Source of the DNA: a virus | Lineage: Duplodnaviria > Heunggongvirae > Uroviricota > Caudoviricetes | Reading direction: 5' to 3' (one strand) | Length of the DNA stretch: 10,110 nt | Virus record (IMG/VR): IMGVR_UViG_3300010280_000146 | Shown here: positions 3,109 to 8,808 of the stretch, one piece after another | How positions within the stretch are numbered: position 1 is the stretch's first letter | Layout of the letters: the number at the start of each line of letters is the position of its first letter | Program-made: the position numbers and the translations under genes | The notes under the pieces: model-generated | Databases searched by the model: none | What the model was told of the DNA's origin: nothing | Seen by the model: only the letters and a program-made list of their open reading frames with translations

Positions 3109-3990
3109 TTACATAGATGTTTCGTTTAATTCTTCCCGACGAACGCTGTAAACGTCGGTGGCTTTTGCCAGCAGTTCGTCATCATCTGAAAGTTTTTGTG
3201 CAATGTATTTGTAAGCCTTATCCAGTTCGGAGACAGTGCTGTAATTCATCGCTGCGCTGGTAAAGGCCATCAGCATTTCTTCTGGATCACGGCTATCCGC
3301 TTTACGCGTTTGCTCATCAGGCTTTTTCACTGGTTTAGCGTTGATCAGACTGTTCATTCCCGCAGCAGTGGTCGTTTGCGGAGTAATGTCTCGCTCAACG
3401 CGCGGTGCCGTTTCCTGTAATTCGTCTGGGGTGTAAACACCGAGAAGTACATCAGGAGCGTGCAGGCGAGCCCATCGTTTCGTGCAAAGATAGGCAAGTT
3501 GCTGGCGCGGATCCTGTTCCCACAATGGAGAGTTACGCACTCCGGCTTGCGCCATACTGATGGTAAGCTCACGGGGTTCTGCTTCTCCTTTAAGAACTGC
3601 TGACACAGTTACCGTCAGATTCGGTGATTTATCTGTTTTGCCGTTAACATTCGACCAGTCACCGCTCCAGCGATAATTCAGGCGTGTCGCTAGCAGGCTG
3701 GAAGAGGATACGACCGCGTTTACCAACTGTGCTTCGTAGCCTAACGTTCCGTTTACCACATGCGTTTTCTGCGCCACGGCGAAAGGGTTCATTCCCCACT
3801 GTGCCGCCTGCATGGTCACCGCCAGGCAATCGGCAGGTTTGCCTTCAAGATGTTTCGGTACAGTCGCTTTGCTTTGTGACATCAACTCCGCGAAACGCAC
3901 CAGTTGATTCATGCCATCGGGGCTGAAGATTGCCGCAGCAGTGCCCACAGTTGCGCCTGGTTGTGATGTGATTGCGATATCATTGCTCAT
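3109..3990 (-). CDS. Bet/RecT-superfamily single-strand annealing protein (lambda Bet-like recombinase)
   Basis: 293 aa; segments MQAAQWGMNPF, NSPLWEQDP...RWARLHAPDVLLGVYTPDE and ERDITP parallel lambda Bet motifs (QYGLNPW, TGPWQSHP...QCARLAFGFAGIYDKDE, ERDITP) as recalled from memory. ATGA overlap with the upstream exonuclease gene. Confidence 0.85.
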   Translation of the reverse strand: MSNDIAITSQPGATVGTAAAIFSPDGMNQLVRFAELMSQSKATVPKHLEGKPADCLAVTMQAAQWGMNPFAVAQKTHVVNGTLGYEAQLVNAVVSSSSLLATRLNYRWSGDWSNVNGKTDKSPNLTVTVSAVLKGEAEPRELTISMAQAGVRNSPLWEQDPRQQLAYLCTKRWARLHAPDVLLGVYTPDELQETAPRVERDITPQTTTAAGMNSLINAKPVKKPDEQTRKADSRDPEEMLMAFTSAAMNYSTVSELDKAYKYIAQKLSDDDELLAKATDVYSVRREELNETSM

Positions 3991-4808
3991 ACGTACATAT
4001 CCTGTTTACGTGCCCAGTCAGGGCGTTTAATAATTTCCACTCCGCCCCATTCATCGTTGATGCGGCATTCGTGGTAGGTATTCAGATCCCGGCGGAACAG
4101 AGCGTGCCCGGCATCGACATCTGGCGCATCCAGCTCGAACACGCGTACCGGATACCGACCACAATCAATGCTTTCGCTCACGGCAAGAAAGAAAAAACCA
4201 TGCGGCTGACCAGTAACCCTCATTGCGCCTTCGCGGTACATTGCGTCCTGCACGTGGTAGCGGAATTCCTCGATGTGGCGTGCAAAACGGTCCATATCCG
4301 CAACCTTTTTCACGTCGACGATCACGTTGTGCTCGTTCAGCCATTTGTCTGGACGAATTCGGCACAACTCACCCGTTTCTTCATCGTTCCAGTACATTGA
4401 TGCTTCGCAGTAACCAGGTGCTTCCAACATCCAGCGTGCCGCCGGATGAGCCATTGCGCTATCACGCATCAGCTCCAGTTTTCGCCACTGCTCGACATCA
4501 AGTACCGCAATACCCATATCCGTCACATCACGAAGAAATGCTTCTTCGTCAGCTTTACCTTGTTTTGTCCGACGATCGAATTTCGGTGAAACGATGAAGC
4601 GTTTGTCGAATTCTCCAGGTTCCAGAAGCAGGCAGTGCAATGCGGTTCCCATATCCAGTGCAGAATTTTTCTCTTCGTCTTCTGGTGCTGCCTGAATCCA
4701 TTTAAGAAGCGCCGGATTCTTGGCAACCATGTCCAGTTGCGACTTACTCACGCCGTCACCGGCGTGGTAGTCTTCGTTGCTGATGTCGAAATAAATTCCC
4801 GGTTTCAT
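3987..4808 (-). CDS. RecE-like PD-(D/E)XK exonuclease (exodeoxyribonuclease VIII-like; partner of the annealing protein)
   Basis: 273 aa; N-terminal GIYFDISNEDYH and the nuclease core RIRPDKW...VIVDVKKV (D...D/E-x-K) plus YHVQDAMY resemble RecE C-terminal-domain-type nucleases; directly upstream of and coupled to the Bet-like gene. Confidence 0.8.
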   Translation of the reverse strand: MKPGIYFDISNEDYHAGDGVSKSQLDMVAKNPALLKWIQAAPEDEEKNSALDMGTALHCLLLEPGEFDKRFIVSPKFDRRTKQGKADEEAFLRDVTDMGIAVLDVEQWRKLELMRDSAMAHPAARWMLEAPGYCEASMYWNDEETGELCRIRPDKWLNEHNVIVDVKKVADMDRFARHIEEFRYHVQDAMYREGAMRVTGQPHGFFFLAVSESIDCGRYPVRVFELDAPDVDAGHALFRRDLNTYHECRINDEWGGVEIIKRPDWARKQDMYV

Positions 4809-5278: not shown

Positions 5279-5293
5279 TTACCGTTGAGGTAA
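5279..5293. promoter_or_regulatory. Operator-like palindrome TTACC GTTGA GGTAA (leftward early promoter region, site 1)
   Basis: Perfect 5-bp inverted half-sites with a 5-bp spacer; overlaps the putative -10 and start-site region of the leftward promoter. Confidence 0.45.
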
Positions 5294-5340: not shown

Positions 5341-5355
5341 TTACCCGTTAGGTAA
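5341..5355. promoter_or_regulatory. Operator-like palindrome TTACC CGTTA GGTAA (leftward early promoter region, site 2)
   Basis: Perfect inverted half-sites; centre is 62 bp from the centre of site 5279-5293. Confidence 0.45.
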
Positions 5356-5412: not shown

Positions 5413-5997
5413 TTATTGTTTGTTTTTTTCGTTCTGGTTGATGACAAATTCAATGTAACTTTCGATCTTTGCCTTCTCTGTTTCAGGTAACAATGCGTAG
5501 CGCGAGCGGTCATAGTTGATAGTTGCAGGGTCATGCGGATGAATCAGTAGTTCATATCCGTGACGCCCGAATGCAGATGCAACATTCTCCAGGGTGGAAA
5601 TGGAAACGCTGACCTCATTGTTTAACAGGCGGCTTATTGTCACCTGGGCGACGCCGGATGCGCGGTGAAGTTTTCCCTGAGTTGAAAGGTCGCGGCTTTC
5701 ACTCATCCAGCGTTCCAGGTTGTGAGCTGCCAGCTGACCAATGTCGCTTGGGCCGACAGGCTGAAAACCTTCCTGAGAAAGCGAGCGATCGATATCAAGC
5801 CAGTTACGGGGTTTATTGGCGGCAGCTTCAATTTTTCGCGCAACCTGGTCGCCGATAACCTTCTTGCCAAGAGCCCAGCGGTTTACCAGATTTGCCTGAG
5901 TTCCAAGTTTTTCTGCCATCCGCGTCTGAACACCATTGAATTCACGGTCGATCAAGTCGTTGAGATTTTGCCTGCGGACGTCCTGGATACTTTTCAT
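5413..5997 (-). CDS. Tandem helix-turn-helix (two XRE-type HTH domains) transcriptional regulator; candidate prophage repressor
   Basis: 194 aa. First HTH around GVQTRMAEKLGTQANLVNRWALGKKVIGDQVARKIEAA, second around LHRASGVAQVTISRLLNNEVSVSISTLENVASAF. No LexA/S24 peptidase motifs seen. Placed like cI, divergent from a Cro-like gene, with its own terminator. Confidence 0.75.
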   Translation of the reverse strand: MKSIQDVRRQNLNDLIDREFNGVQTRMAEKLGTQANLVNRWALGKKVIGDQVARKIEAAANKPRNWLDIDRSLSQEGFQPVGPSDIGQLAAHNLERWMSESRDLSTQGKLHRASGVAQVTISRLLNNEVSVSISTLENVASAFGRHGYELLIHPHDPATINYDRSRYALLPETEKAKIESYIEFVINQNEKNKQ

Positions 5998-6052
5998 TTT
6001 CTGGAAAATCGCCTCATATATGAATCAGTAGATGATTCAATTTAAAGCAATA

Positions 6053-6067
6053 TTACCCAACAGGTAA
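6053..6067. promoter_or_regulatory. Operator-like palindrome TTACC CAACA GGTAA (divergent promoter region, site 1)
   Basis: Perfect inverted half-sites between the repressor-candidate start (5997) and the Cro-like start (6152). Confidence 0.45.
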
Positions 6068-6069
6068 AT

Positions 6070-6084
6070 GCACCCCATAGGTAA
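6070..6084. promoter_or_regulatory. Degenerate operator-like site GCACC CCATA GGTAA (divergent promoter region, site 2)
   Basis: Right half-site perfect, left half-site 3 of 5; centre 17 bp from site 1. Confidence 0.3.
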
Positions 6085-6090
6085 CTATCC

Positions 6091-6127
6091 TTGATTTTTG
6101 TTACCTTATGGGTGAATATTTATTATC
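6091..6127 (+). promoter_or_regulatory. Putative pR-like promoter for the Cro-like gene (element assignment ambiguous)
   Basis: Candidate -35 TTGATT (6091-6096) or TTGTTA (6099-6104) with -10 TATTAT (6121-6126, 16-bp spacer from the latter); overlaps operator-like site 3. Confidence 0.3.
6101..6115. promoter_or_regulatory. Operator-like site TTACC TTATG GGTGA (divergent promoter region, site 3)
   Basis: Left half-site perfect, right half-site 4 of 5; overlaps the candidate rightward promoter. Confidence 0.35.
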
Positions 6128-6151
6128 TGAAATAAATATCAGGCAATAGCT

Positions 6152-6382
6152 ATGAGCGATAACGGACATTTCGATTTCAAAAAGCACTGGCTTGCACTTA
6201 CTCCGGATGAGCGTGAAGCCTTCGCACAGGAAGCCGGAACGACGAGTCACTATATCCAGACTCACTTAACAGGTAAGCGCAAAATGCCAGGTAAGGTATT
6301 GATGAATGGGCTTTTTAAAGCCTGTAAAACAAGACAATGGCTGCGCTCAAAAGCGGAACTGGCATACTTCTTCTACTCATGA
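6152..6382 (+). CDS. Cro/YdaS-like small HTH regulator
   Basis: 76 aa; LTPDEREAFAQEAGTTSHYIQTHLTGKRKMPGKVLMNGLFKACK fits Cro/CI-type and YdaS-like HTH proteins. Divergent from the repressor candidate and followed by a terminator. Confidence 0.7.
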   Translation: MSDNGHFDFKKHWLALTPDEREAFAQEAGTTSHYIQTHLTGKRKMPGKVLMNGLFKACKTRQWLRSKAELAYFFYS

Positions 6383-6403: not shown

Positions 6404-6427
6404 AGACCGCCATCCGGCGGTCTTTTC
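6404..6427 (+). terminator. Rho-independent terminator directly after the Cro-like gene
   Basis: Stem AGACCGCC (6404-6411) / GGCGGTCT (6416-6423), loop ATCC, then a short T-run (6424-6426). Confidence 0.55.
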
Positions 6428-6437
6428 ATATCTATTC

Positions 6438-6452
6438 GTACCTCAAAGGTAA
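6438..6452. promoter_or_regulatory. Operator-like site GTACC TCAAA GGTAA upstream of the replication operon
   Basis: 9 of 10 half-site positions match TTACC/GGTAA; lies between the cro terminator and the 66-aa gene, followed by a TTGATA -35-like hexamer at 6470-6475. Confidence 0.3.
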
Positions 6453-6532
6453 TAAAAAACCAAATCTGGTTGATATTTTTTTTGTGTCAGCACAAAATAA
6501 CCGTAATCCCAATACTAATAACAGGGCTTACC

Positions 6533-6748: not shown

Positions 6749-7564
6749 ATGAGCAGACATGCAACAGATTGGGCCTGGGAGACAGATCCAGGTAGCTCGT
6801 CATTAAAGCTCATACTGCTCTCGATGGCTGACAGAGCCGATGAATATAACCTCTGCTACCCCAGCATAGAACGCCTCGTTAAAGACACTTGTCTGAATAA
6901 AAAAACCGTGCAGGCCGGGCTTATATCGCTCATGAAAATGGGGCTTATTTCAGATACCGGAGAGAGAAAGGGAGCGACAAAAAGAGTGCGGGTTTTCTCT
7001 CTTAATATAACCAAAAACGGGAACATTAAAGGCAACCGGGAGGGGGGCAATGAACCCGAAAACGGTAATGTTACCGAAAACGGGAATATACCCAAAAACG
7101 GGATGTTGAATGATCCCAAAAACGGGATGTTGAATGATCCCAAAAACGGGATCCAGAACCAGTCATATAACCGGTCATTTAACCAAGAGAGGGAGAGCAG
7201 GACAAAAAACGGGGATTCTGTGTCTCATGACCCCGGCGCAAACAACGCCGTGATGAATAACTTTGTTCCTCCTGGTGGGCCAGGGCAATTAGGCAAATTT
7301 GTCATGCATGAACAATGGCAGCCATCAGATGACTTTCTTCGGAAAAGCTCATTGCAGGGAATCTACCTGGATAGTCTGCCAACGGCACAGGAACTTGCAG
7401 AGTTCAGAATTTACTGGATGGCTGAGGGTAAGGCATACCATCAGGCACAGTGGGAGCAGAAGCTGGCAAGGCGGCTGCAGATTAGCAGACAGAAGCAATC
7501 AACATTACCTGATAACAACGTTCCGCACTGGAACAGCCCTGAAGCGTGGGAGGATTTCTTGTGA
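6749..7564 (+). CDS. Replication initiator (O-like): N-terminal winged-HTH domain, Asn/Gly-rich repeat linker, C-terminal DnaT-like domain
   Basis: 271 aa. N-terminus MSRHATDWAWE...LKLILLSMADRADE...SIERLVKDTCLNKKTVQAGLISLMKMGLIS (HTH_36-like). C-terminus WQPSDDFLRKSSLQGIYLDSLPTAQELAEFRIYWMAEGKAYHQAQWEQKLARRLQISRQ closely parallels the E. coli DnaT C-terminal region (WQPDADF...[29 protein letters not shown], recalled). RBS GGAG 8 nt upstream. Confidence 0.85.
   Translation: MSRHATDWAWETDPGSSSLKLILLSMADRADEYNLCYPSIERLVKDTCLNKKTVQAGLISLMKMGLISDTGERKGATKRVRVFSLNITKNGNIKGNREGGNEPENGNVTENGNIPKNGMLNDPKNGMLNDPKNGIQNQSYNRSFNQERESRTKNGDSVSHDPGANNAVMNNFVPPGGPGQLGKFVMHEQWQPSDDFLRKSSLQGIYLDSLPTAQELAEFRIYWMAEGKAYHQAQWEQKLARRLQISRQKQSTLPDNNVPHWNSPEAWEDFL
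7011..7150 (+). repeat. Iteron-like direct repeats inside the O-like gene (candidate origin of replication)
   Basis: Six copies of the core C(C)nAAAACGG(G) at 7011, 7055, 7075, 7091, 7115 and 7139, including two exact 24-bp tandem units CCCAAAAACGGGATGTTGAATGAT (7091-7114, 7115-7138); they encode the repeated NGMLNDPK linker. Confidence 0.6.
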
Positions 7565-8346: not shown

Positions 8347-8383
8347 TACCAGCGCGATAGCGCATTTTTTTACGCCTTGATAA

Positions 8384-8398
8384 TTACCTTTTGGGTAA
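8384..8398. promoter_or_regulatory. Operator-like palindrome TTACC TTTTG GGTAA downstream of the P-like gene
   Basis: Perfect inverted half-sites in the AT-rich intergenic region 8347-8463. Confidence 0.4.
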
Positions 8399-8445
8399 TA
8401 AAGTATTCTAAACTCTATTGATTTCGTGTCTTATGTGGTTTTTAA

Positions 8446-8460
8446 TTACCTCAGGGGTAA
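8446..8460. promoter_or_regulatory. Operator-like palindrome TTACC TCAGG GGTAA abutting the DUF1064 gene start
   Basis: Perfect inverted half-sites ending 3 nt before ATG 8464 and overlapping the likely RBS; centre 62 bp from site 8384-8398. Confidence 0.4.
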
Positions 8461-8463
8461 ATC

Positions 8464-8808
8464 ATGAGAAAACAGATACAGGCTCTTGGTCGACTCAAAA
8501 CAGGCCAGATGAACAAAACAGAATCTGCGTATTGCCAGCACCTTGAGCTGCGTAAACGTGCAGGAGAAATCGTCTGGTATCGATTTGAGGGTATCAAGCT
8601 GCGGTTAGCTGACAACACGTTCTATACGCCCGATTTTGCTGTGATGCTCGCCACCGGCGAGATGGAACTGCACGAAGTGAAAGGTTTCTGGACCGACGAC
8701 GCCAGGGTGAAAACCAAAGTCGCCGCAGATCAGTATCCGTTCCGAATCATCGGGGTAACGGTTAAACCAAAGAAAGCAGGTGGTGGCTGGAACATCGAAG
8801 AGTTCTGA
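8464..8808 (+). CDS. DUF1064-family phage protein (nuclease-like fold, function unknown)
   Basis: 114 aa; NKTESAYCQHLELRKRAGEIVWYRFEGIKLRL...YTPDFAVMLATGEMELHEVKGFWTDDARVKTKVAADQYP fits the DUF1064 pattern as recalled. Confidence 0.65.
   Translation: MRKQIQALGRLKTGQMNKTESAYCQHLELRKRAGEIVWYRFEGIKLRLADNTFYTPDFAVMLATGEMELHEVKGFWTDDARVKTKVAADQYPFRIIGVTVKPKKAGGGWNIEEF

Follow-up and report, generated by a model that had tools for sequence, protein, structure and literature searches.

A conserved three-site cluster of candidate Rep operators between the divergent repressor and gp41 genes of a phiV10-like prophage

The window analyzed here, a stretch of 10,110 nucleotides of viral DNA, contains three related inverted repeats, named A, B and C, in the 154-bp intergenic region (5998-6151) between the repressor gene on the minus strand and gp41 on the plus strand. 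By its motif, its cognate repressor and its homologous positions, this region is a member of the epsilon15/SPC32H Rep-operator family, and the sequence and placement of the three sites make it very probable that they are binding sites of the repressor (Rep) on back-to-back promoters, in the right-hand operator region of a phiV10-type prophage. The region is an ordinary example of a known operator type, predictable from the Salmonella phages epsilon15 and SPC32H and unannotated in phiV10-type records. It represents no new kind of regulatory system, and its remaining value lies in the conserved spacings as test cases for the DNA-binding mode of Rep.

The window shares 98% identity with Escherichia phage phiV10 and with its relatives, namely typing phages 9 and 10, PAS61, phiv142-3, ZX5 and TL-2011b. 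It opens in the 3′ end of guaA and has the att core ATTGAGTGGGAATGATT at 107-123, where phage ZX5 is reported to integrate; this indicates an integrated phiV10-like prophage of the genus Uetakevirus (epsilon15-like podoviruses) at guaA of E. coli. A phiV10-like element is present in approximately 540-557 of 5426 complete E. coli genomes, about one in ten. The gene order is int, methylase, AlpA-like, RecT, exonuclease, two small genes and repressor, and, beyond the divergent gap, gp41, a small gene, DnaT/O-like, P-like and DUF1064. Prophages of this type double as O157 reporter and typing phages, and an accurate operator and promoter map shows which genes remain off in lysogens and by what means the prophage is held silent.

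Sites A, B and C and their conservation

Site A (6053-6067, TTACCCAACAGGTAA, centre 6060) lies proximal to the repressor gene and is a perfect TTACC-N5-GGTAA with 0 mismatches. Site B (6070-6084, GCACCCCATAGGTAA, centre 6077) abuts A and is degenerate, reading GCACC-N5-GGTAA, and both of its 2 mismatches fall in one half-site and include the invariant TT. Site C (6101-6115, TTACCTTATGGGTGA, centre 6108) is proximal to gp41 and has 1 mismatch (TTACC-N5-GGTGA). The centre-to-centre spacing is 17 bp for A-B and 31 bp for B-C. The first-pass annotation of this DNA had described one perfect and two degenerate sites in the 154-bp gap with these distances between centres, and its coordinates were reproduced exactly.

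The motif occurs far more often than expected by chance. Allowing at most 1 mismatch, the window has 8 matches to TTACC-N5-GGTAA where 0.20 would be expected, a count not reached in any of 200 shuffles; allowing at most 2 mismatches, there were 11 matches against 3.0 expected. We also scored the window with a weight matrix trained solely on operators of other phages located outside this intergenic region. The matrix, built from 40-46 operators of relatives, gives aTTACC-wwwww-GGTAAt. Sites A, C and B scored 20.6, 13.8 and 6.4 bits, respectively, where matrix strength is a sequence proxy distinct from affinity, and 8 sites in the window scored at least 13 bits against 0.06 expected. With a first matrix of nearly identical make-up, the training operators themselves scored 10-26 bits. 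Because a match equal in score to B (6.5 bits, 6262-6276, centre 6269) sits inside the coding sequence of gp41, site B is not significant by score alone. Since the invariant THLTGK is encoded there, the match within gp41 was attributed to a coincidence of coding and rejected as an operator. Two other kinds of element were rejected as well: direct repeats of the lambda CII type (TTGC-N6-TTGC) were found 12 times against 15 expected, and the Rfam matches for structured RNA in the region were below threshold and located on terminators.

For comparison, homologous regions were collected from phages Tyrion, BUCT554, Klebsiella BUCT711, epsilon15 and SPC32H, from six prophages in the genomes of Superficieibacter, Erwinia, Klebsiella, Citrobacter (two) and Scandinavium, and finally from E. 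coli PT62, a divergent variant. The repressors of the first eleven relatives (PT62 aside) are 41-78% identical to that of the window. The layout A-17-B-30/31-C is kept in 13 relatives, always with the repressor gene adjacent to A, and the genera that carry it are Escherichia, Enterobacter, Klebsiella, Salmonella, Citrobacter, Superficieibacter, Erwinia and Scandinavium. The claim of an operator cluster in the gap that separates the divergent repressor gene from the gene of a small Cro-type HTH protein was borne out.

In the 12-sequence alignment, the mean pairwise column conservation of the half-sites was 1.00 for A, 0.89 for B and 0.86 for C, and that of the central 5-bp spacers was 0.56, 0.43 and 0.42, respectively; the two leaders showed 0.51-0.58. 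The comparison across related prophages proposed in the first-pass annotation gave half-sites conserved at 86-100% against spacers at 42-56%, and such a contrast is the footprint expected of a protein reading both half-sites. Across the phiV10 and epsilon15 lineages, intergenic conservation is confined to blocks formed by the three operators and the promoter hexamers. When the motif was searched for in distant relatives of the Rep N-terminal domain (Paraburkholderia, Hydrogenovibrio), no sites were found, and this search was uninformative.

The half-sites of A were identical in 11 of the 11 distinct aligned relatives. Site B aligns column for column with full-strength sites of epsilon15, SPC32H and the Klebsiella phages (19-24 bits), and its half-site GCACC is found exactly in Tyrion, BUCT554, Superficieibacter, Scandinavium and E. 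coli PT62, with a varying 5-bp spacer. Site B is therefore backed by its aligned position, its score being at chance level. In every relative, one half-site of C is imperfect (TCACC/ACACC type); it is the half towards gp41 in the phiV10 group and the half towards the repressor gene in the epsilon15 group. The graded site quality emphasized earlier is, as judged from these sequences, real in the window phage (20.6, 13.8 and 6.4 bits); it does not extend to the family as a whole, since B is full-strength in the epsilon15, SPC32H and Klebsiella lineages, and the universal part is the imperfection of C only.

The repressor and the predicted promoters

The repressor gene (5413-5997, minus strand) encodes a 194-aa protein of the SPC32H-Rep family, 100% identical to the repressors of phiV10, ZX5 and a dozen others. 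In a phmmer comparison it matched the SPC32H Rep over its full length (PDB 5D50, E=4e-42, residues 1-190, 42% identity; also 5D4Z). A Pfam search found no Peptidase_S24 domain in Rep, and two HTH regions were found. In the alignment of Rep proteins, the predicted recognition helix NLVNRW is invariant together with many residues of the C-terminal tetramerisation region, which explains one operator core across repressors that are 42% identical.

The SPC32H Rep is described as consisting of an N-terminal DNA-binding domain, a middle HTH-like dimerisation domain and a C-terminal domain for tetramerisation and antirepressor binding (PMC9986798). According to the same account and a related one, it binds DNA as a tetramer that is disassembled by a tetrameric antirepressor, and the pair of DNA-binding domains on each palindrome was proposed to come from different dimers (PMC9986798, PMC9638917). 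A single tetramer is stated to suffice for repression, unlike in the case of SaPI1 Stl (PMC9638917). For the protein identical to that of the window, overexpression of ZX5 Rep left no free phage and reduced the mRNAs of endolysin and holin by 99.97-99.99%, and overexpression of the ZX5 antirepressor lowered rep mRNA by 75% (PMC9782041).

To find promoters, every -35/-10 pair of the 12 aligned sequences was scored, and those at conserved positions were kept. One clear positionally conserved candidate per strand was obtained, with consensus matches in 12/12 relatives, and from these we infer the promoter positions. The predicted rightward promoter for gp41 has a -35 box TTGATT (6091-6096, plus strand), invariant in 12/12, and a -10 box GAATAT (6114-6119, plus strand; GAATAT or AATAAT in the relatives) at a conserved position after a spacer of 16-17 bp, and would start near 6126. 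The spacer is taken up by site C, which extends over the first 2 bp of this -10 box. A scan with a generic consensus gave an alternative rightward promoter 7 bp downstream, TTGTTA (6098-6103) with TATTAT (6121-6126) on the plus strand, which C overlaps too.

The predicted repressor promoter has a -35 box TTTACC (6063-6068, minus strand), invariant in 12/12, 5 of whose 6 bases come from site A, and a weak -10 box TTAAAT (6040-6045, minus strand); TT(A/T)AAT or TCTAAT is found 17 bp from TTTACC in 12/12, and the start is predicted near 6033. Most of the spacer is formed by site A as well. The base preceding TTACC in this -35 box is T in 12/12 sequences, compared with A (66%) in the operator consensus, which fits double duty as a -35 box. 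The promoter is rated weak (5-7 bits) because its -10 box lacks the usual A at position 2. Site B lies within the 22 bp that separate both predicted -35 boxes, at approximately -44 relative to the leftward start and -49 relative to the rightward one. Two other candidates for the repressor promoter, TAATAT at 6055-6050 and TTGCCT-N15-TAATAA in the gp41 leader, were rejected because they had no usable -35 box or were not conserved in the epsilon15 group. It is unusual for the strongest operator to sit on the promoter of the repressor gene itself, and the promoter assignment might be wrong, or gp41 might be the main user of A.

The ATG of rep is secure because the alignment with the crystallised SPC32H protein begins at the N-terminal residue 1. 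The remark in the first-pass annotation that rep has no obvious Shine-Dalgarno element at normal distance was roughly right: the nearest similar element, GAGG at 6015-6012 on the minus strand, precedes the ATG by 14 nt, and the relatives have a purine-rich patch with an invariant G at equal distance. A leaderless rep mRNA is not favoured, however, because the conserved promoter candidate (12/12) predicts a leader of approximately 35 nt. In the alignment of relatives, no conserved promoter-like hexamers were found next to the rep ATG. Poor translation initiation of rep thus seems more likely from the sequence than a leaderless mRNA.

Other operators, gp41 and the working of the region

The cluster is not a self-contained three-site switch, since operators were found at no fewer than five locations in the window, with 8 strong sites. 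Downstream of the terminator of the repressor gene are two perfect sites 62 bp apart (61-63 bp in all relatives), left operator 1 at 5279-5293 (21.6 bits), which lies by the -10 box of a predicted leftward promoter and is homologous to annotated epsilon15 repressor sites, and left operator 2 at 5341-5355 (22.1 bits). A single operator with one mismatch (6438-6452, 18.4 bits) follows the gp41 terminator and lies upstream of the promoter of the replication genes, and in phiV10, Tyrion and PT62 its counterpart lies at a distance of 336-337 bp from site C. A second 62-bp pair, present in all relatives, precedes the DUF1064 gene; its upstream member at 8384-8398 (25.5 bits) and its downstream member at 8446-8460 (21.0 bits) are both perfect, and the latter overlaps the ribosome-binding region of the gene at 8464. 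Finally, an operator-like site with one mismatch (257-271, 16.4 bits) was found approximately 50 bp upstream of the integrase start, and epsilon15 has the same imperfect site (GGTAT) at equal distance from int. At most 1 mismatch allowed, the whole genomes of phiV10 and epsilon15 contain approximately 14 and 15 sites, respectively.

The GenBank record of phiV10 has no operator annotation, and the accessible literature on phiV10-type phages gives no description of the three sites. The epsilon15 record contains seven features of 16-17 bp, labelled 'protein_bind, repressor, lysogeny', that read ATTACC-N5-GGTAAT. The intergenic region of epsilon15 genes 38/39, homologous to the one studied here, has two perfect cores and one site with 1 mismatch, all unmarked in the record, which shows only an IHF site there. 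The epsilon15 genome paper of Kropinski et al. (2007) reportedly proposed the hyphenated inverted repeat ATTACC-N5-GGTAAT as the operator, with a consensus that reportedly reads ATTACCWDWWNGGTAAT; a full-text literature search for ATTACCWDWWNGGTAAT gave no match.

We propose that Rep, binding as a tetramer via its N-terminal HTH, would recognise aTTACC-N5-GGTAAt and would be inactivated by an antirepressor, without RecA-dependent self-cleavage. Because C fills the spacer and the -10 edge of the predicted sigma-70 rightward promoter, Rep bound there would block it and keep early rightward transcription off. Similarly, A covers the -35 box and spacer of the weak predicted repressor promoter, so that Rep at A would limit its own synthesis. 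Site B would most likely serve as a second site for the A-bound tetramer, or as a bridge to C three helical turns away. These site-by-site roles and the pairing by tetramers are what we infer from the arrangement of sites and promoters. The 61-63 bp operator pairs (approximately six turns) at two other early promoters in all relatives suggest two-site binding by one tetramer, and the cluster would belong to a phage-wide set of Rep operators that controls the left operon, the replication genes, DUF1064, the integrase and late regions outside the window.

A possible second regulator at these sites is gp41 (6152-6382, plus strand), a predicted Cro-type HTH protein of 76 aa that matches phrog_35 'transcriptional repressor' (E=5.6e-13). 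By sequence, neither a Pfam nor a PDB match was found. An AF2 model built from 19 homologues is a five-helix bundle (pLDDT 83.7), and its best fold matches, which are weak (E>1, TM 0.54-0.63), were the 434 repressor DNA-binding domain, the YdaS N-terminal domain, C-proteins and P22 c2; the Cro-type fold is thus a prediction from this model and these weak matches. The protein is 27% identical to the N-terminal HTH of Rep over 41 aa. It is far better conserved than Rep: the gp41 proteins of the phiV10 and epsilon15 lineages share 58-76% identity and an invariant recognition helix, compared with 42% identity for Rep. Because no other intergenic blocks are conserved across the lineages, a gp41 site in this region should coincide with the operators or the hexamers, and if gp41 acts here, A, B and C are most likely its sites.

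These properties leave some room, as a possibility we hold tentatively, for a lambda-style bistable switch in which Rep and gp41 would bind A, B and C with opposite preference, gp41 first at A, turning off the repressor promoter, and Rep at C (and B), turning off the rightward promoter. Such a switch would suit a small HTH protein with a predicted 434-Cro/YdaS fold that appears to be a distant paralogue of the Rep DNA-binding domain, is encoded by the first gene of the rightward transcript, keeps its recognition helix across lineages and has the three operators and promoter hexamers as the sole conserved blocks at its disposal. The strongest site lies over the repressor promoter, as for lambda Cro at OR3, and the 75% drop of rep mRNA with the ZX5 antirepressor fits a shut-off of rep in the lytic phase (PMC9782041). 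However, DNA binding by gp41 is putative, and the protein could act elsewhere or as an activator. In addition, the recognition helices TTSHYIQTH of gp41 and TQANLVNRW of Rep are unlike each other, the repressor class, spacing and induction route are unlike those of lambda, and most of the approximately 11 other operators of the phage have no obvious need for a Cro.

The status of site B allows for another arrangement, to which we assign a rather low probability: the phiV10 lineage would have a two-site operator of A and C, and B would be a decayed relic that no longer attracts Rep by itself. Its 6.4 bits are under the score of every training operator (10-26 bits) and equal to the chance match within gp41, and its 2 mismatches in one half-site hit the invariant TT. 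On the other hand, GCACC is exact in five other lineages next to a freely varying spacer, which argues for constraint; the half-site columns of B stand at 0.89 compared with 0.43 in its spacer, and a site abutting the perfect A would allow cooperative filling by a tetramer.

It is unlikely, and slightly less likely than a decayed B, that Rep at B activates the repressor promoter as lambda CI does at OR2, with A repressing only at high Rep. The centre of B, approximately 44 bp upstream of the predicted rep start, would be a classic activator position, the poor -10 box of the predicted promoter is typical of activator-dependent promoters, and the 75% fall of ZX5 rep mRNA on antirepressor overexpression (PMC9782041) would be in line with a loss of activation. 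However, A is much stronger by sequence, overlaps the same -35 box and spacer and should fill first; the rep start site is itself a prediction; and the fall of rep mRNA is also explicable by a Cro-like shut-off or by cell lysis.

The view that the sites are chance matches or bind another protein (IHF, or integrase at arm sites), for which the IHF site and missing repressor site in the epsilon15 record of the homologous region might speak, is effectively refuted by the 8 matches against 0.2 expected, by the layout with its half-site versus spacer footprint in 13 relatives, and by the two perfect cores and one 1-mismatch site that the epsilon15 region carries and the record omits.

Returning to repression by a Rep tetramer, the conserved geometry may itself encode how the protein engages DNA through loops or wraps, and immunity might be set at the interface of repressor and antirepressor; we put this forward as speculation that has a minor chance of being correct. 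It would draw on A and B abutting each other, B and C lying three helical turns apart, and the 61-63 bp pairs bracketing other early promoters. If true, small defined loops or wraps would replace the pairwise cooperativity of the lambda style, with the strongest operator placed on the promoter of rep. Furthermore, the half-site and the recognition helix are frozen across 42%-identical repressors, so operator recognition might not set immunity specificity.

Comparison with known systems

The closest counterpart is the epsilon15/SPC32H system. Its operators have the same half-sites (ATTACC-N5-GGTAAT), and its repressors are homologous to that of the window, with an identical recognition helix and the three-part architecture. 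The gene order is also shared, as are the three sites at 17 and 30 bp and the 62-bp pairs, found at the left operon and ahead of the early gene that follows. The differences are that Rep is only 42% identical, that B is full-strength there and degenerate here, that the imperfect half of C is on the opposite side, and that the spacers are richer in G+C.

The resemblance to the logic of lambda OR1-OR2-OR3 that the first-pass annotation had pointed out holds only in outline. Both regions have three related but unequal sites between divergent genes for a repressor and a small HTH protein, the back-to-back promoters overlap these sites (by prediction in the window), and one site is positioned as an activator site for the repressor promoter. 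Lambda CI is a dimer with a self-cleaving S24 C-terminal domain, its operators have a centre spacing of approximately 23-24 bp with the strongest CI site over PR, and the PRM transcript is leaderless. In contrast, Rep has no S24 domain and belongs to a tetrameric family controlled by antirepressors, the spacing is 17 and 31 bp in the window (17 and 30/31 bp among relatives), a difference from lambda that had been noted, and the predicted rep leader is approximately 35 nt. Site A, the top site by the matrix, lies over the predicted repressor promoter, the reverse of the CI order, and operators occur at five or more locations. The logic ascribed to OR1-OR3 thus stands only for the divergent three-site outline, and by repressor architecture, spacing and strength order, as read from the sequence, membership in the lambda CI/Cro class is ruled out.

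Tetrameric looping repressors, namely Rco of pLS20, PrgX and Stl of SaPI1, provide a further comparison. They share with Rep an N-terminal HTH and a C-terminal tetramerisation domain, and the 61-63 bp operator pairs of the window would, by analogy, fit two-site binding by one tetramer. SPC32H Rep and Rco are reported to have in common the DNA-binding domain, the TetDloop architecture and an antirepressor partner (PMC9986798). The proteins are otherwise structurally unrelated to Rep, and looping by Rep is purely putative. The secondary literature describes the DNA engagement of the SPC32H-type tetrameric repressor as still poorly characterised, and the natural spacing variants of this operator family (17, 30/31 and 61-63 bp) form a test set for it.

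Operator specificity in the phage group

When we compared the window with three relatives (L002, L004 and L005), the half-site of the operators, TTACC-N5-GGTAA palindromes predicted to be the binding sites of the prophage repressor Rep, was found to be invariant together with the recognition helix of Rep, although the repressors are only 41-45% identical. For gp41, the small Cro-type helix-turn-helix (HTH) gene divergent from rep, the identity in the same comparison was 58-76%. Judging from the sequences, operator specificity seems to be frozen in this phage group, perhaps owing to the approximately 15 operators carried by each genome, and differences in immunity may therefore reside in the repressor-antirepressor interface. 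The antirepressor genes are located outside the window. In ZX5, a phage with an identical repressor, overexpression of a Bro-N-type 'anti-repressor' lowered the repressor mRNA by 75% (PMC9782041). This fall is a hint that Rep autoregulates positively or that the repressor promoter is shut off in the lytic phase.

The GenBank record of epsilon15 (L007, AY150271.2) annotates seven repressor binding sites. Within its gene 38/39 intergenic region, the sole annotation is an IHF site and none of the three repressor sites is marked; two perfect cores and one core with a single mismatch are present there (33341-33402). Inside gp41 of the window, a weak operator-like match, TCACTTAACAGGTAA (6262-6276, 6.5 bits), is probably a coincidence of the coding sequence, which here specifies THLTGK, an invariant stretch of the HTH. 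Because such a match reaches 6.5 bits, the score of site B, the degenerate member of the three operators between rep and gp41, is at chance level when taken on its own.

Paired and single operators

Two pairs of perfect operators, at 5279-5293 and 5341-5355 (left) and at 8384-8398 and 8446-8460 (right), each have their centres 62 bp apart. A spacing of 61-63 bp, approximately six helical turns, was kept at both the left and the right pair in all the 13 relatives, and this conservation suggests that the two sites of each pair would be bound by one tetramer. Which promoter belongs inside the pairs is ambiguous, and the candidates are predicted ones. At the left pair, the candidate consists of TTGACA (5321-5316) and AATTAT (5298-5293). 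The right pair offers two, namely TTGATA (8377-8382) with TAAAGT (8399-8404), where the operator falls in the spacer, and TTGATT (8418-8423) with TTTAAT (8441-8446).

A lone operator with one mismatch (6438-6452, 18.4 bits) lies directly past the gp41 terminator (6404-6423) and approximately 60 bp upstream of the predicted start of a candidate promoter (6470-6498), which would drive the replication genes; no partner operator was found at this start site. Its counterpart lies 336-337 bp from site C, another of the three operators between rep and gp41, in phiV10, Tyrion and E. coli PT62, and a scan allowing at most one mismatch detected no counterpart in epsilon15 and SPC32H.

Integrase end, replication and recombination genes

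The window opens in the 3′ end of guaA and has the att core ATTGAGTGGGAATGATT at 107-123, and this segment (1-123) is the left junction of an integrated prophage. An operator-like site, TTACCTTAAAGGTAT (257-271, 16.4 bits), precedes the GTG start codon of the integrase gene (314) by approximately 50 bp. Since the same imperfect site recurs in epsilon15 at an equal distance from int (26882-26896 versus 26939), int may also be under repressor control.

Iteron-like tandem repeats (7054-7152; 18-bp units in 2.8 copies and 24-bp units in 2.6 copies at 100% identity) lie within the DnaT/O-like replication gene and code for an Asn/Gly-rich stretch. They may constitute an origin of replication that lies, as in lambda, within the initiator gene. 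The RecT gene and the YqaJ/lambda-exonuclease-like gene are present in the window as two overlapping ORFs (3109-3990 and 3987-4808), whereas the phiV10 record gives one 'recET fusion' CDS over the same region.
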